DNA from: a virus
Virus record (IMG/VR): IMGVR_UViG_3300030104_005320
Location: 1-64,000 of that record
Reading direction: 5' to 3' (one strand)
Length of the DNA stretch: 64,000 nt
In this document: positions 9,357-16,874 of the stretch, one piece after another
Position numbering within the stretch: position 1 is the stretch's first letter
Layout: each line of letters begins with the position of its first letter
Program-made: the position numbers and the translations under genes
Notes under the pieces: model-generated
Databases searched by the model: none
What the model was told of the DNA's origin: nothing
Seen by the model: only the letters and a program-made list of their open reading frames with translations

Positions 9357-9437
9357 CCTAAATACATATCACAAAACAACTTAGGGCATGTACGACCGAC
9401 CGGCCCGACGTAAGTCGTTTGATAGTATAGACTTACA
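9357..9437. repeat. Paired 11-7-11 palindrome element, copy 1
   Basis: CCTAAATACAT-ATCACAA-AACAACTTAGG (9357-9385) and CGTAAGTCGTT-TGATAGT-ATAGACTTACA (9409-9437). Confidence 0.85.
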
Positions 9438-9472
9438 ACTATTTTATTTTCTTTTGAGAATCTTTTGTTTAT

Positions 9473-9504
9473 TGACCTTACGTGTCACACTAGTATACGA
9501 TAAT
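9473..9504 (+). promoter_or_regulatory. TGAC-N7-GTCA box promoter
   Basis: TGACCTTACGTGTCA, 11 bp, GATAAT. Confidence 0.65.
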
Positions 9505-9541
9505 ATATATAGTTAAGAAGTTAAGCAACAAAGGAGACGAC

Positions 9542-9613
9542 ATGACTAAACCATCGGCAGTAGAATTGGCAATAATTATTTCCCTGTTTATTTATATTGT
9601 TTGGAACGTTTGA
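9542..9613 (+). CDS. 23-aa hydrophobic micropeptide (MTKPSAVELAIIISLFIYIVWNV)
   Basis: AAAGGAG SD directly after a promoter; single TM segment. Confidence 0.55.
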   Translation: MTKPSAVELAIIISLFIYIVWNV

Positions 9614-9642
9614 CCTAACGTGTCAAAGGGTTATGCTATAAT
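9611..9642 (+). promoter_or_regulatory. TGAC-N7-GTCA box promoter
   Basis: TGACCTAACGTGTCA, 11 bp, TATAAT (extended TGn). Confidence 0.7.
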
Positions 9643-9648
9643 TAAGGC

Positions 9649-9840
9649 ATGAAAGAAACAAACAACAAAGGAGAAACCATGATTAAGATTATCATCAAAA
9701 CTTACGAAGGCCAAACCTACACCAAAACCGTTGACCGTATGGGAACGCCTGATACTGGAATCAACTGCTTGGTTGAAGATGTCGTATTTGGAACGTTCAT
9801 GCGATGCGAAGTTAAAGAATTGAATTGGAGATTTATCTAA
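9649..9840 (+). CDS. Small hypothetical protein (alternative start 9679)
   Basis: ORF; AAAGGAG SD before the second ATG. Confidence 0.6.
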   Translation: MKETNNKGETMIKIIIKTYEGQTYTKTVDRMGTPDTGINCLVEDVVFGTFMRCEVKELNWRFI

Positions 9841-10040
9841 TGAAGATGACACTAAACGAAATTTTTACCTGTAAAGAAATTAACGGTAAAGAGGTTACAA
9901 GGATCGGAACCAAGAATCTGGTAGCCACTTTCAAGGATGTCGAGGGTAACATTATTGCCGTCGATGTCGATTGTGACGACTATCCTGAAATCAAGGATAG
10001 AGAGAAGCTGTCACACCTCAAAGGTCGAGGTACTTGGTAG
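9840..10040 (+). CDS. Small hypothetical protein
   Basis: TAATG-coupled to the upstream ORF; ends just before element 2. Confidence 0.6.
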   Translation: MKMTLNEIFTCKEINGKEVTRIGTKNLVATFKDVEGNIIAVDVDCDDYPEIKDREKLSHLKGRGTW

Positions 10041-10045
10041 TTTGT

Positions 10046-10127
10046 CCTAAGTCGTTACCCCATAAGGGTTTACGGCTAGGTCGCCCCCGCCGCCGCGACG
10101 TAAGTCGTTACGGCGTAAGGGTTTACA
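10046..10127. repeat. Paired palindrome element, copy 2
   Basis: CCTAAGTCGTT-ACCCCAT-AAGGGTTTACG and CGTAAGTCGTT-ACGGCGT-AAGGGTTTACA, starts 53 bp apart. Confidence 0.95.
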
Positions 10128-10234
10128 ACTATTTCTATTATTTTTCAAATAAACTTCAGAATGGGGTTTACAAGTGCCGATAACTTATATATACTTCAGT
10201 ATCAAAATTAAGTTTCACTTTTGGAGTTTATTTT

Positions 10235-10414
10235 ATGTTCGACGCTCAAATCACATCGCACGAAACTACTCTTGACACTCTCACCGATGCGGAGCGTGCC
10301 GAGCTTAATGCTTGGTTTGACCGGCAACAGCATCGCAACGCTTGGCAGGATGCTATTGATTCCCTGCAACAGGGCGAAGACGATCAGCTTGAATGGATTG
10401 AACAACCTATCTAG
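10235..10414 (+). CDS. 59-aa acidic protein (MFDAQITSHE...EQPI)
   Basis: GGAG SD; promoter TTTACA-17-TATACT upstream; shares AELxAW motif with the next gene. Confidence 0.65.
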   Translation: MFDAQITSHETTLDTLTDAERAELNAWFDRQQHRNAWQDAIDSLQQGEDDQLEWIEQPI

Positions 10415-14874: not shown

Positions 14875-14934
14875 TATATATGGCAGTTTTTGCAGCAGCT
14901 TTTTGTTTAGAGTACTATAAGAGAAAGGCATAAA

Positions 14935-15408
14935 ATGATTAAGCAGATTAACGGACCCAACGCGGCTTGGAATAAACAATGGTTTACGGAAATGGCCGAA
15001 AGGGTAATACTTAATAAGCCGATTGAAGTTTACAAAAATCTACACAAGGGGTGTTGGTCCGTTAGGCAGGGTGGTAAAGTTTTGTTTCATACTACCTATA
15101 TCTGTATGCACGATTGCCGGTTTGTAGTTAGACCGGCGGGACATGCAAAGGTAATTAAGGAGCAAAGAAAAAATGTACACGCCTTTGTAAGAGGTTATTT
15201 AATTTCAAGCAGGGCGGCTGATTCTTTAACGGAGGGGATAGAATGGCAAGAAGAAAAGGTCACCTATAATCCCTATAAGCAACCGCATTTTACGTGTGGA
15301 AAGTATGCCGTATCTCGTGCCGACGTTGTTGACATGGCAAGCGATGCCAAACATGGCGGGGTGCTGGCATGGGGGATAACTACAATAGACGGTAAAAAGT
15401 TACCGTAA
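14935..15408 (+). CDS. Conserved phage hypothetical protein
   Basis: VYKNLHKGCWSVR...KNVHAFVRG...TYNPYK pattern, familiar from phage hypotheticals. Confidence 0.65.
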   Translation: MIKQINGPNAAWNKQWFTEMAERVILNKPIEVYKNLHKGCWSVRQGGKVLFHTTYICMHDCRFVVRPAGHAKVIKEQRKNVHAFVRGYLISSRAADSLTEGIEWQEEKVTYNPYKQPHFTCGKYAVSRADVVDMASDAKHGGVLAWGITTIDGKKLP

Positions 15409-15415
15409 GATTTGC

Positions 15416-15497
15416 CGTAAGTCCTTTGCCCGTAAGGGTTTAGGGCGAGGCGGCCACCCCCCGCCGCTCCTAAGTCCTTTGATACCAACGACTTACG
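15416..15497. repeat. Paired palindrome element, copy 6
   Basis: CGTAAGTCCTT-TGCCCGT-AAGGGTTTAGG and CCTAAGTCCTT-TGATACC-AACGACTTACG. Confidence 0.95.
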
Positions 15498-15517
15498 ACG
15501 ATTATCCGGCAGAATTG

Positions 15518-15601
15518 TGACACCTTTGGTCGTGACCTAACGTGTCCAAGAAATAATAATTAAAGATTAGGGTTTGACATTGCCGATGATATATGTATAA
15601 T
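15518..15601 (+). promoter_or_regulatory. Tandem TGAC-N7-GTCA boxes plus composite promoter
   Basis: Boxes 15518-15532 (inverted) and 15533-15547; TAAAGATT-N13-GCCGATGA; TTGACA-16-TATAAT. Confidence 0.75.
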
Positions 15602-15642
15602 GAGAGTCTGTTAAGTTAGTTTTTTCTTTGAAAGGGTTTTTT

Positions 15643-16524
15643 ATGTCTTCTGTTTCTAATTCTGTTTCTGATCAGATCCGCTCGACTTTCAACTTTACTG
15701 TTGACAAGTTCCCGCTATCCGGTCCCGATGGGATGTCCACCCCGTTGTATGGTTTGTTCCGTAGCGATAATAGTTCGCTCGTTGGTTCAAAATCCGTCAC
15801 TGCTCGCTATCATCCACACACCACCGACGACGTTTGTGCGTTGGCAGATGCTGCGGAAAATGCGTTCGATGGCGATATTGACATTCGTTGCCATTTTCGC
15901 AATGGTCACTATGTTGACGTGAAACCCAACATTGCAGAACGTAAAGCCGTGTACGGTACTGCGGACAATATCTGGCCTCGCGTGTTAATTCGTGCGGGTT
16001 ACGATGGCGAATCGTTTCGGGCCTCAATGGGTTATTTCCGCGATGCTTGCAGCAATATGGCTATGATGTCGATGGTTAACGGTACGTCCGTTTGTATCCG
16101 TCACACCAGCGGCCTGCGTAGCAAGATGGACGAGCTAATCGCTACGTTCAACACGCTGAAAAATTCGTGGTCTAATCTGTCTGATGTCGTCGATCAGATG
16201 CAATCGCGTGAAGTTGTTCTGACTGACTTCCTCAATCAGTTGTATCCACAACCAACACAGACCGAAGGTCGTGGGGTTACGATGCACAAAAATCGTACTG
16301 AGTCAATCGTCCGTCGCGTTATGCGGGAGCGTTTGACAACTGGCCGACCTACCCTTGGTCAAGATTTCAAGATTTCAGCGTGGGAAGCGTACAATGCTGT
16401 TCAGGGCTATGTCCAGCATGATGCGAACGCCCGCAAAGGTTTCACAGGTGAGTTCGACCGCATCATTCGTGCGGCTAACGATCAGACAGTCCGCAAGGCT
16501 GAACGATTAGCACTCGCCGCCTAG
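15643..16524 (+). CDS. DUF932/DUF945-family protein
   Basis: GYDG...GYFRDACSNMA...IRHTSG...SAWEAYNAVQGYVQH pattern. Confidence 0.7.
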   Translation: MSSVSNSVSDQIRSTFNFTVDKFPLSGPDGMSTPLYGLFRSDNSSLVGSKSVTARYHPHTTDDVCALADAAENAFDGDIDIRCHFRNGHYVDVKPNIAERKAVYGTADNIWPRVLIRAGYDGESFRASMGYFRDACSNMAMMSMVNGTSVCIRHTSGLRSKMDELIATFNTLKNSWSNLSDVVDQMQSREVVLTDFLNQLYPQPTQTEGRGVTMHKNRTESIVRRVMRERLTTGRPTLGQDFKISAWEAYNAVQGYVQHDANARKGFTGEFDRIIRAANDQTVRKAERLALAA

Positions 16525-16657
16525 TACCCTTTCTACCGTCCCCCGCTTGGGGGGCGGGCTTTTAGGGGTATGCCTATGGAATTTGGTTATATATTTTTCT
16601 TGGTTTTTTTCTTTTTTATTTTTCTTTCATTTTTAAAAGAGAAATTGACCTAACGAG

Positions 16658-16685
16658 TCCCCGTCGTTTTTTGGCGGGGATTTTT
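16658..16685 (+). terminator. Intrinsic terminator
   Basis: TCCCCGTC/GGCGGGGA hairpin plus T-tract, abutting element 7. Confidence 0.7.
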
Positions 16686-16767
16686 CGTAAGTCCTTATAG
16701 CGTAAGGGTTTACGGCGAGGCGGGCGGTCGCCGATTGACCTAAGTCCTTACTATCAAAAGAGTTGCA
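16686..16767. repeat. Paired palindrome element, copy 7
   Basis: CGTAAGTCCTT-ATAGCGT-AAGGGTTTACG and CCTAAGTCCTT-ACTATCA-AAAGAGTTGCA; a degenerate third site at 16789-16817. Confidence 0.9.
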
Positions 16768-16874
16768 ACAAGTTTAGTTATTTTTTGCTCCAAGTCATTG
16801 TCTGGATTGTACTTATGGAAAATAGTGTTTTGGTATGGTATGATGGTAGGGTGGCATACTCATATCTGTCGGGC

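Follow-up and report, generated by a model that had tools for sequence, protein, structure and literature searches.

Organization of the early array

The window analysed here (64,000 nt, positions 1 to 64,000 of the 115,903-bp IMG/VR virus record IMGVR_UViG_3300030104_005320, from an uncultured marine phage) contains a plus-strand array of small early gene cassettes separated by a repeated element of about 82 bp. There are seven copies, all in the same orientation, and each consists of two 29-bp sites joined by a linker, with site starts 52 or 53 bp apart; within a site, two 11-nt arms flank a 7-nt spacer. The features of the array are listed below, the three terminator-like hairpins and the promoter-like site at 13949-13976 having been read directly from the sequence.

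9357-9437, plus strand: element 1 (degenerate site 1 at 9357-9385, 23-bp linker, site 2 at 9409-9437)
9472-9486, plus strand: first copy of a second, 15-bp dyad box, 34 bp past element 1 (dyad families D7, D8 and D11)
9610, 10809, 11207, 13895, 13910, 15532 and 16645: further starts of the second dyad box
10046-10127, plus strand: element 2 (sites at 10046-10074 and 10099-10127; linker 24 bp, 83 % GC)
10167-10195, plus strand: early sigma-70-type promoter, 10 of 12 consensus letters, 39 bp past element 2
10692-10773, plus strand: element 3 (sites at 10692-10720 and 10745-10773)
12465-12545, plus strand: element 4 (sites at 12465-12493 and 12517-12545)
12586-12613, plus strand: early sigma-70-type promoter, 11 of 12 consensus letters, 40 bp past element 4, reading into a non-coding stretch
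13728-13780, plus strand: terminator-like hairpin with T-run that ends the unit before element 5; absent from the list given by a simple scan
13797-13878, plus strand: element 5 (sites at 13797-13825 and 13850-13878), immediately 3' of the preceding intrinsic-terminator-like hairpin
13949-13976, plus strand: promoter-like site, 70 bp past element 5 (39 bp plus ∼3 helical turns)
14086-15408, plus strand: cassette 5 genes, of the GP88 family (14086-14874) and the L5 gp82 family (14935-15408)
15416-15497, plus strand: element 6 (sites at 15416-15444 and 15469-15497)
15574-15601, plus strand: consensus sigma-70-type promoter, 12 of 12 letters, 76 bp past element 6, driving the DUF932 gene
15643-16524, plus strand: cassette 6 gene, encoding a DUF932 protein that was used to find relatives
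16536-16563: second terminator-like hairpin upstream of element 7
16659-16685, plus strand: terminator-like hairpin with T-run, directly before element 7
16686-16767, plus strand: element 7 (sites at 16686-16714 and 16739-16767), downstream of two terminator-like hairpins

Element 1 lies at a divergent junction, with minus-strand genes on one side and the early array on the other. The seven positions and the 52-53-bp spacing had been reported in a first-pass annotation of this DNA and held for every copy, as did its observation that a last gene twice ends inside an element: the stop codons of the ORFs at 10427-10696 and 12380-12469 are the TAA of the first arm of elements 3 and 4, respectively. 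No match to the 29-bp pattern was present outside the array in the whole record, and the backwards control gave 0. Half-sites of 11 nt (≤ 1 mismatch) numbered 19 in the window, compared with 3.2 ± 1.5 in shuffled sequences, and 16 of them fell within the array. Two parts of it are degenerate, with site 1 of element 1 retaining 8-9 of 11 letters and the right arm of the last site, in element 7, retaining 7 of 11. The sites had been described as palindromes; the 11-7-11 layout stands, but true palindromy does not, as positions 2, 6, 7 and 9 of the arms are often mismatched. Similarly, the ACTATT tail, given as a usual feature of the second site, was seen in four of the seven copies. The linker is ∼82 % GC, versus 32 % in the next 39 bp; it folded no better than shuffled sequences, and the idea of a specific linker hairpin was therefore rejected.

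All 14 spacers are indeed mutually different. Those of the second sites are nevertheless not free, belonging to a 7-mer family of TGATACC and near variants, in either orientation, that is met again in relatives and in numerous marine contigs; element 6 has the spacer that recurs in relatives. The spacers of the second sites of elements 1 and 7 (1b and 7b) are reverse complements, as previously stated, but because the match falls within this family it is much less improbable than it appears.

Promoters and helical phasing

Each cassette had been proposed to possess its own promoter, which we were able to confirm. Promoters of sigma-70 type follow elements 2, 4, 5 and 6, and box-type promoters follow elements 1 and 3; the second dyad box occupies the -35 slot, ∼21 bp upstream of a -10-like hexamer (again read from the sequence), and two of its copies lie between element 5 and the promoter-like site. 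Among relatives, a promoter was found after 36 of 48 second sites. The offset from site 2 to the -35 box was 38-40 bp in 18 of the 36, with further clusters at 26-27, 48-50, 59-60 and 71 bp (∼10.5 bp apart). This gave a Rayleigh R of 0.65 at 10.5 bp, or of 0.52-0.59 (p about 0.006-0.02) with the main cluster counted as a single value; out-of-register offsets of 34, 42, 45, 76 and 92 bp were also present. The 39-bp peak could stem from copying of the whole unit rather than from selection. Additionally, some relatives (L022 and similar loci) fill these slots with unrelated GC-rich repeats and retain the same promoters, and the dyads are therefore dispensable for promoter function as such.

Related phages and cassette exchange

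Four related genomes of 154-174 kb (93-100 % complete) were available, and in all five genomes the sites were confined to a single early region of 8-17 kb (backwards control, 0). Direct terminal repeats are present in the record of only one relative, G002, whose array spans 130.7-139.2 kb of its 173 kb. A collection of isolated phages contained no match, whether by nucleotide or by DUF932-protein search, and among sequencing runs the stretch itself was matched only in Logan contigs of marine metagenomes, with no RNA run listed. The phage has a split DnaE and a terminase 22-31 % identical to those of Bacillus, Clostridioides and Microcystis phages, nearest to the Bacillus and Microcystis ones; it is thus not T4-like.

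Relatives do not agree in how the GP88 and gp82-like genes are ordered, nor in whether these share a cassette or occupy two. Between the loci L008 and L018, patches of 88-94 % identity in a ∼65 % background begin inside site 2 and the promoter, one of them starting within site 2. Shuffling of cassettes at element boundaries had been suggested, with a comparison of cassette order across relatives as its test; the order is not identical, and together with the mosaic patches this supports the suggestion. In an alignment of four marine runs, depth rose to peaks over the elements, and site 2 was the sole shared part of many contigs; the listed joints in marine contigs have short sides or intervening linker-like letters and resemble elements of other phages aligned piecewise.

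The conservation of the sites was determined from 112 copies at 12 phage loci. Arm positions 3-5 were invariant and positions 1, 8, 10 and 11 nearly so, in both arms, whilst positions 2, 6, 7 and 9 varied without compensation. At position 6 we counted 41 Watson-Crick pairs, 26 G-T pairs, 15 A-C pairs and 30 other mismatches; position 9 was mismatched in 61 of the 112 sites. A pitch of 52-53 bp was kept in 43 of 47 site pairs, with a pitch of 48-49 bp (∼4.6 turns) at locus L023 and single sites at L019 and L032. The elements thus display the two-fold symmetric, conserved half-sites and fixed promoter geometry of an operator or UAS, around a centre that is not conserved except for the biased site-2 spacer.

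Dyads in Planctomycetota chromosomes

Planctomycetota accounted for 26 of the 80 bacterial matches listed by title. The site was present in 17 of 300 sampled genomes of this phylum, compared with 1 of 300 for the backwards control, and in 1 of 200 genomes of a control phylum, compared with 3 of 200 for its backwards control; at the chosen stringency only ∼6 % of the sampled Planctomycetota genomes have the site, and many sites were seen in G010 only. In this Planctomycetia genome there are 15 sites, and a module ordered as dyad, 61 bp, dyad, 31 bp, consensus -35 box, 17 bp and -10 box occurs at least 10 times. The similarity between copies stops at the transcription start, and the geometry is unlike that of the phage, the dyads having a pitch of 90 bp and the -35 box following after 31 bp. 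The genes that follow are heterogeneous, specifying encapsulin shell proteins, a Ser/Thr kinase, a DUF1501 protein, a PQQ propeller, an ECF-sigma-like protein and a peptidase M90; no tRNA or known RNA gene was found after the modules.

These dyad-dyad-promoter modules point to a host-encoded candidate binder. None of the IHF/HU genes of G010 adjoins a dyad, and neither the phage ORF screen described below nor a search around the G010 modules and IHF/HU genes gave a protein candidate that binds the dyads. The likeness of the half-site to the IHF consensus is uninformative because the dyads are symmetric and IHF sites are not. With regard to the host, the permuted tmRNA of the phage scores as alphaproteobacterial-type, a weak signal against a planctomycete; array-bearing phage-like contigs have been binned into metagenome-assembled genomes of six phyla, which makes binning uninformative.

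Alternative explanations

It is very unlikely, in our view, that the elements work as RNA, forming two or three adjoining operon-end hairpins that terminate, process (RNase III-like) or stabilize early transcripts. Within the window the plus strand does fold better than the minus strand (-33.3 vs -27.9 kcal/mol), most right arms of site 1 can form G-U pairs on the plus strand, some copies have a tetraloop-like centre, and elements 2, 3, 4 and 6 have no separate terminator upstream. Across relatives, however, the strand bias is absent (22 vs 25 elements, means -28.6 vs -29.1 kcal/mol), many being arranged oppositely with A-C mismatches on the transcribed strand, and the variable positions show zero compensatory change. 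The compensated pairing and U-tract of intrinsic terminators or RNA-processing sites are lacking: no U-tract stands behind the GC-rich stem, and separate terminator-like hairpins precede elements 5 and 7. Moreover, host copies sit upstream of promoters, and no Rfam family was matched in the 9-17-kb region. Elements 1, 5 and 7, at a divergent junction or behind terminator-like hairpins, are therefore unlikely to be transcribed. The conserved letters in both arms, the uncompensated positions, the absence of strand bias and this placement argue for the dyads being candidate protein-recognition sites in double-stranded DNA, rather than an RNA hairpin. Even less probable are REP/BIME-like selfish or structural repeats, which, by forming cruciforms or binding gyrase, for example, would ease supercoiling between units under heavy transcription and need no regulator of their own. 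Imperfect palindromes that come in pairs around a GC-rich centre and separate co-directional units with strong promoters would suit such a role, as would a position upstream of strong promoters, where negative supercoils accumulate (the twin-domain model). Nevertheless, the uncompensated 11-7-11 arms have no GTAG/CGTC tag and differ from the 8-9-bp stems, which are compensated, and 4-5-nt loops of the REP format (PMC3733652); there is no RAYT gene, distant phages and bacteria keep the same letters, and register with the promoter is maintained.

The first-pass annotation had left a choice between an integron- or pdif-like platform and phased protein-binding sites, and only the latter option fits. 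That the dyads are core sites of integron-, pdif/Xer- or invertase-like recombination, by which cassettes are excised, captured or inverted, appears extremely doubtful. The 11-7-11 geometry is like that of tyrosine-recombinase core sites, cassette order varies and the 1b and 7b spacers are reverse complements. Yet searches that gave matches in control genomes revealed no tyrosine recombinase (PF00589), serine recombinase (PF00239) or Y1/RAYT protein (PF01797) in the four relatives or the full record, extending the reported absence of a recombinase from the window. Strand exchange by tyrosine recombinases requires matching overlap regions, whereas all 14 crossover-equivalent spacers differ; without a recombinase and with differing spacers, an integron or pdif reading is unsupported. 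The cassettes are self-promoted rather than promoterless and have no adjacent IntI, the dyads are locked to promoter geometry, and the joints in marine contigs include no clean excision or inversion. The sites also depart from the 11-6-11 layout with matching centres of Xer/dif in their 7-bp spacers, and their arms are unlike the dif consensus. Somewhat more credible, although still unlikely, is a phage-encoded binder (an early/middle or virion protein) that shuts off, times or insulates the early units in the style of dispersed operators, the bacterial chromosomal copies being host take-over targets or coincidence. The restriction of sites to the early region and the different repeats in the same slots of related phages are expected for a cis element co-evolving with a phage protein. 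In addition, most element-bearing genomes share, at 60-76 % identity, a 67-aa protein (13517-13720); its identity is 33 % in the element-free loci L021 and L022, it is absent from the element-free genome G005, and it drops to 41-46 % in the L023/G004 phage, where elements are present. However, of the 39 candidate ORFs present in G001-G004 and absent from G005, ten put through Pfam gave a zinc ribbon only, with no helix-turn-helix or other recognizable DNA-binding domain, and the predicted small beta-barrel of the 67-aa protein (pLDDT 88) has Tudor, WYL and Rof-like fold matches all weaker than E = 0.04. A phage protein would furthermore leave the at least 10 promoter modules of a bacterial chromosome unexplained, as well as a half-site that is constant across phages with proteins only 41-60 % identical.

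Proposed function

We consider it reasonably probable that the elements are paired docking sites upstream of early promoters, for a binder that is probably host-encoded and of planctomycete type, with cassettes exchanged at the units. Phased protein-binding sites are supported by the uncompensated, conserved half-sites, the five-turn pitch, the promoter register and the presence of the same dyads in bacterial chromosomes. Each element would offer two docking sites on double-stranded DNA to a symmetric (dimeric) sequence-specific protein; being five helical turns apart, they would lie on the same face of the helix with a stiff GC-rich spacer between them. Element, AT-rich stretch and host-type promoter would constitute one unit, with site 2 in register with the -35 box and centred near -89. 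From these features we infer that the phage drives or tunes its early cassettes by means of a copied host promoter architecture, the binder, most likely a host protein of a kind present in Planctomycetota, acting by activation or repression. As the ∼150-bp unit separates every early cassette from the next and recurs in related phages, it may also serve as a homology patch at which cassettes are exchanged by ordinary recombination, similar to T4 PeSLs.

More tentatively, a clade of large aquatic phages, as yet uncultured, might share with its hosts (probably planctomycetes) an undescribed promoter-control system, in which a dimeric binding or bending regulator recognizes paired 29-bp dyads in register with sigma-70-type promoters. 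By copying the module before every early cassette, such phages could have hijacked a host regulator at the outset of infection and obtained a standard connector for swapping early, host-takeover and anti-defence genes with one another. Very little is known about how promoters are controlled in Planctomycetota or in the large uncultured phages possibly infecting them; a conserved and easily recognized cis module common to phage early regions and host promoters is a direct DNA pull-down bait for the regulator and a possible host-prediction marker for this uncultured clade. Should the binder belong to the host, the array would clearly exemplify a lytic phage that has connected every early cassette to a single host regulator.

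Comparison with known systems

We found no published description of these paired-dyad elements in the literature. Sites for host DNA-bending proteins before phage early promoters (IHF at Mu Pe and lambda pL), and the phi29 p4 sites, lie tens of bp upstream and depend on the face of the helix; Mu and lambda thereby exploit a host protein. Such sites number one or two in a genome, and those of IHF lack symmetry. The present phages, in contrast, repeat a symmetric pair of dyads 7-11 times in each genome, for a putative binder. KorB O_B operators of IncP plasmids and the stoperators of mycobacteriophage L5 are many operator copies between transcription units read by one regulator, with known, element-encoded binders; the L5 sites are asymmetric single 13-mers, and neither system has the paired geometry and promoter phasing seen here. 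Tyrosine-recombinase core sites (dif/pdif, loxP) and integron attC share ∼11-bp inverted arms, a 6-8-bp spacer and flanked small cassettes, whereas the present elements combine self-promoted cassettes and unmatched spacers with neither a recombinase nor an attC-type single-strand fold. REP/BIME repeats are likewise imperfect extragenic palindromes between genes, often paired with defined linkers (PMC3733652), but here the stem/loop format is different, terminal tag and RAYT are absent, and the copies keep to a single phage region at a fixed promoter distance.

The closest parallels are with the PeSLs, the promoter-early stem-loop cassettes of T4-type phages (PMC2839356; PMC4122927). In both, a composite unit is repeated between small early genes of a hyperplastic region. 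Its palindromic element sits just before an AT-rich stretch that leads to an early promoter of sigma-70 type; another class of unit carries a middle-type box. When relatives are compared, the units lie at the edges of indels, of replacements and of genes that have moved. The stem-loop of PeSLs is interpreted as a terminator; it is a short and simple hairpin of G/C runs that differs in sequence from one phage group to another (PMC2839356; PMC4122927). In this phage, which has no T4-like myovirus genome, the upstream part is instead an 82-bp pair of 29-bp dyads that is phased with the promoter and has no pairing constraint, strand bias or U-tract, and whose letters are kept across distant phages and bacterial chromosomes. 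The array represents a second, independent case, outside the T4 group, of promoter-linked repeats organizing a hyperplastic early region.

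Paired dyads in the early region

The record to which the window belongs, as its first 64 kb, comprises 115,903 bp at 39 % GC and is estimated to be 75 % complete; it comes from marine metagenomes and, among the sequencing runs listed, the stretch or part of it was present in 20 runs from eight studies. Re-scanning recovered all seven of the elements reported in the first-pass annotation, each consisting of two 29-bp dyads (sites 1 and 2; arms and spacer 11-7-11) lying 52 or 53 bp apart, start to start, in a single orientation. The linkers between the two sites are 70–96 % GC. 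The further claims that two elements carry a stop codon within their first arm, that all 14 spacers differ and that the spacers of the second sites of elements 1 and 7 are reverse complements were equally accurate, and the claimed absence of the element elsewhere extends from the window to the whole 116-kb record, where neither the full dyad pattern outside the array nor the same pattern reversed (our yardstick for chance matches) gave a single match. The half-site alone matched 19 times in the window, compared with 3.2 ± 1.5 times in shuffled sequences, and 16 of the 19 were inside the array. The first site of element 1 is degenerate, as is the right arm of the last site.

Features of the window (coordinates are window positions)
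9357, 10046, 10692, 12465, 13797, 15416 and 16686: starts of elements 1–7, all in the same orientation
9472–9486, 9610–9624, 10809–10828, 11207–11221, 13895–13924, 15532–15546 and 16645–16659: second, 15-bp dyad (4-7-4)
12614–13040: ~400 nt without a sizeable ORF, read into by the promoter after element 4
13517–13720: 67-aa basic protein, next to element 5
27675–28270: three tRNA genes (Ile, Met, Arg)
39620–39947: permuted tmRNA gene

Duplex DNA site or RNA hairpin

In order to discern whether the dyads behave as duplex DNA sites or as RNA hairpins, we tabulated 112 of them. Arm positions 3–5 never varied in either arm, positions 1, 8, 10 and 11 hardly did, and the variable positions showed no compensation: at position 6 the two arms formed Watson–Crick pairs in 41 sites, G–T pairs in 26, A–C in 15 and other mismatches in 30, with positions 9 and 2 mismatched in 61 and 44 of the 112, respectively. 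Symmetrically conserved letters that are free of any pairing constraint are characteristic of duplex DNA read by a two-fold symmetric protein. As for an RNA hairpin, G–U pairs would be expected on the transcribed strand in most first sites of the window, and the mirror arrangement, which puts A–C mismatches on that strand, is found in many sites of three related viral loci (L008, L009 and L023). Across 47 whole elements the minimum free energy was lower for the plus strand in 22 and for the minus strand in 25 (means −28.6 vs −29.1 kcal/mol), and linkers folded no better than shuffled linkers. Moreover, element 1 lies at a divergent junction and hairpin-plus-T-run terminators directly precede elements 5 and 7, so that transcription of at least three copies is unlikely. 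An oddity is seen in first sites, which have half-sites of two types, ...GTC... and ...(A/C)CC...: both arms were of the variant type in only 2 of 47 (Fisher p = 0.004). The terminator-like hairpin ahead of element 5 also carries a solitary half-site in its loop (13737–13760).

Helical phasing with early promoters

Downstream of every element come an AT-rich stretch (32 % GC) and then a promoter. The gap from site 2 to the −35 box was 38–40 bp for 18 of the 36 second sites with a recognizable downstream sigma-70-type promoter, with minor clusters at 26–27, 48–50, 59–60 and 71 bp; for a 10.5-bp period the Rayleigh statistic was 0.65, and when the main cluster was collapsed to one value, allowing for copying, R was 0.52–0.59 (p about 0.006–0.02). 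Within the window the gap is 39 bp for element 2, 40 for element 4, 70 for element 5 and 76 for element 6, and elements 1 and 3 lie 34–35 bp ahead of a 15-bp dyad of another type, which takes the place of the −35 box. The measured gaps thus place the centre of site 2 near −89 and that of site 1 near −142. Exceptions to this geometry comprise offsets of 34, 42, 45, 76 and 92 bp, a pitch of 48–49 bp in L023 and the single sites of L019.

The second dyad sits in the −35 slot ~21 bp upstream of a −10-like hexamer, which hints at a class of activator-dependent (middle-type) promoters. In its outer letters it is similar to the paired-dyad half-site with three extra bases, and it occurs in the element-free relative L022 as well. 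Downstream of the element behind the DUF932 gene, and of one other L020 element, relatives have a short conserved motif in common in place of a sigma-70 promoter (L008 11052–11090; L009 11120–11160; L020 3544–3580 and 4806–4840). The stretch at 12614–13040 contains a T-arm-like segment at about 12820–12850, and received no call from either ARAGORN or Rfam; downstream of element 7, minus-strand genes start after ~350 nt that contain no ORF. Farther along, the phage encodes a circularly permuted tmRNA (Rfam, 89 bits), for which ARAGORN called a tag peptide.

Related phages and variable cassette content

Using the DUF932 protein of cassette 6 (cassettes being the early-gene segments between elements) as the query, we identified 25 related viral loci (41–60 % identity). 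The same paired elements were present in L008, L009, L010, L018, L020 and L023 (4 to 11 each) and single dyads with a conserved spacer in L019 and L032; others in this set, for example L022 and L027, contained none. For four relatives that are 93–100 % complete (154–174 kb), every dyad fell within one contiguous early region of ~8–17 kb, with zero matches to the reversed control. L022 has early promoters and the second dyad box as here, with unrelated GC-rich repeats filling the paired-dyad slots between cassettes; the repeat, ~100 bp of three GC-rich hairpin-like blocks (1225–1320, 2115–2215 and further copies), precedes the same promoters. In G007, the record of L019, dyads occur singly, with an asymmetric spacer that is conserved (5538–21695); they have one orientation at 5.5–9.8 kb and the opposite at 18–21.7 kb; the site therefore has polarity, which may track the direction of transcription.

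Cassette content and order, which the first-pass annotation had proposed comparing, do vary among relatives. A GP88-family gene followed by an L5-gp82-family gene shares one cassette in this phage; the two are in separate cassettes in L008, separate and in reverse order in L009 and L018, and reversed within one unit in L020, L021 and L022, and one or the other is missing from L010 and L023. Between L008 and L018, patches of 88–94 % identity stand out from a background of ~65 %, one of them starting inside site 2, spanning the promoter and adjoining different genes in each phage; the same mosaic pattern has been described for the promoter-early stem-loop cassettes (PeSLs) of T4-type phages (PMC4122927). 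Marine contigs include many other phages with only site 2 in common, and they showed no joint that would mark a clean excision or inversion.

The first-pass annotation had offered two readings of the array, an integron- or pdif-like cassette platform and phased protein-binding sites. Tyrosine and serine recombinases and Y1 (RAYT/IS200) transposases were searched for with Pfam models that matched the control genomes; neither the record nor the four near-complete relatives gave a match. Because all 14 spacers differ, exchange between the sites by a tyrosine recombinase would not be expected to succeed. The underlying observation was confirmed, and phased binding sites are supported by the symmetric letters free of pairing constraint and by the helical register with promoters, whereas the integron/pdif reading was not supported.

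Sites in bacterial chromosomes and candidate binders

Scanning one genome per prokaryotic species for the exact dyad matched at least 120 stretches. Among the 80 matches listed by title, 26 were from Planctomycetota and 8 from Gemmatimonadota; several short contigs with multiple sites were evidently pieces of phage that had been binned with various metagenome-assembled genomes, and many Firmicutes matches were ordinary perfect terminator hairpins. Of 300 evenly sampled Planctomycetota genomes, 17 contained the site, vs 1 for the backwards pattern; the corresponding counts for 200 control-phylum genomes were 1 and 3. One Planctomycetia metagenome-assembled genome (G010, 8.2 Mb) held 15 sites, and aligning ten of its loci revealed a module of dyad, 61 bp, dyad, 31 bp, consensus −35 box, 17-bp spacer and −10 box, the copies of which lose similarity at the predicted transcription start, with different genes beyond. 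Dyad pairs 77–98 bp apart were found at other planctomycete and gemmatimonadote loci. For several G010 modules (L201–L227) the first convincing gene lies 1.1–1.6 kb past the predicted promoter; the intervening stretches have purine-rich motifs in common but do not align, and two loci contain group II intron domains.

Promoter modules in a chromosome cannot rely on a protein made by a phage, so the simplest reading of these sequences is that the putative binder would be host-encoded, with the caveats that the phage and chromosomal geometries differ, that most sampled genomes lack the site at this stringency and that the phage's permuted tmRNA scores as alphaproteobacterial in type. The IHF/HU genes of G010 were not adjacent to dyads. 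A presence/absence screen of phage ORFs, together with Pfam scans, yielded no DNA-binding candidate. The 67-aa basic protein is 60–76 % identical across most element-bearing relatives, a conservation far above that of its neighbours, and is modelled as a small beta-barrel (pLDDT 88) with weak matches to Tudor and WYL domains and the Rho inhibitor Rof.

Taken together, the elements are probably paired operator- or UAS-type sites, held in a fixed helical register relative to early promoters, for a putative dimeric DNA-binding protein that the host is likelier to encode than the phage; the entire unit would double as a recombination scaffold for a hyperplastic early region. Our literature search found no published description. 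Among described systems the T4 PeSL comes nearest; the two differ in the nature of the upstream part.
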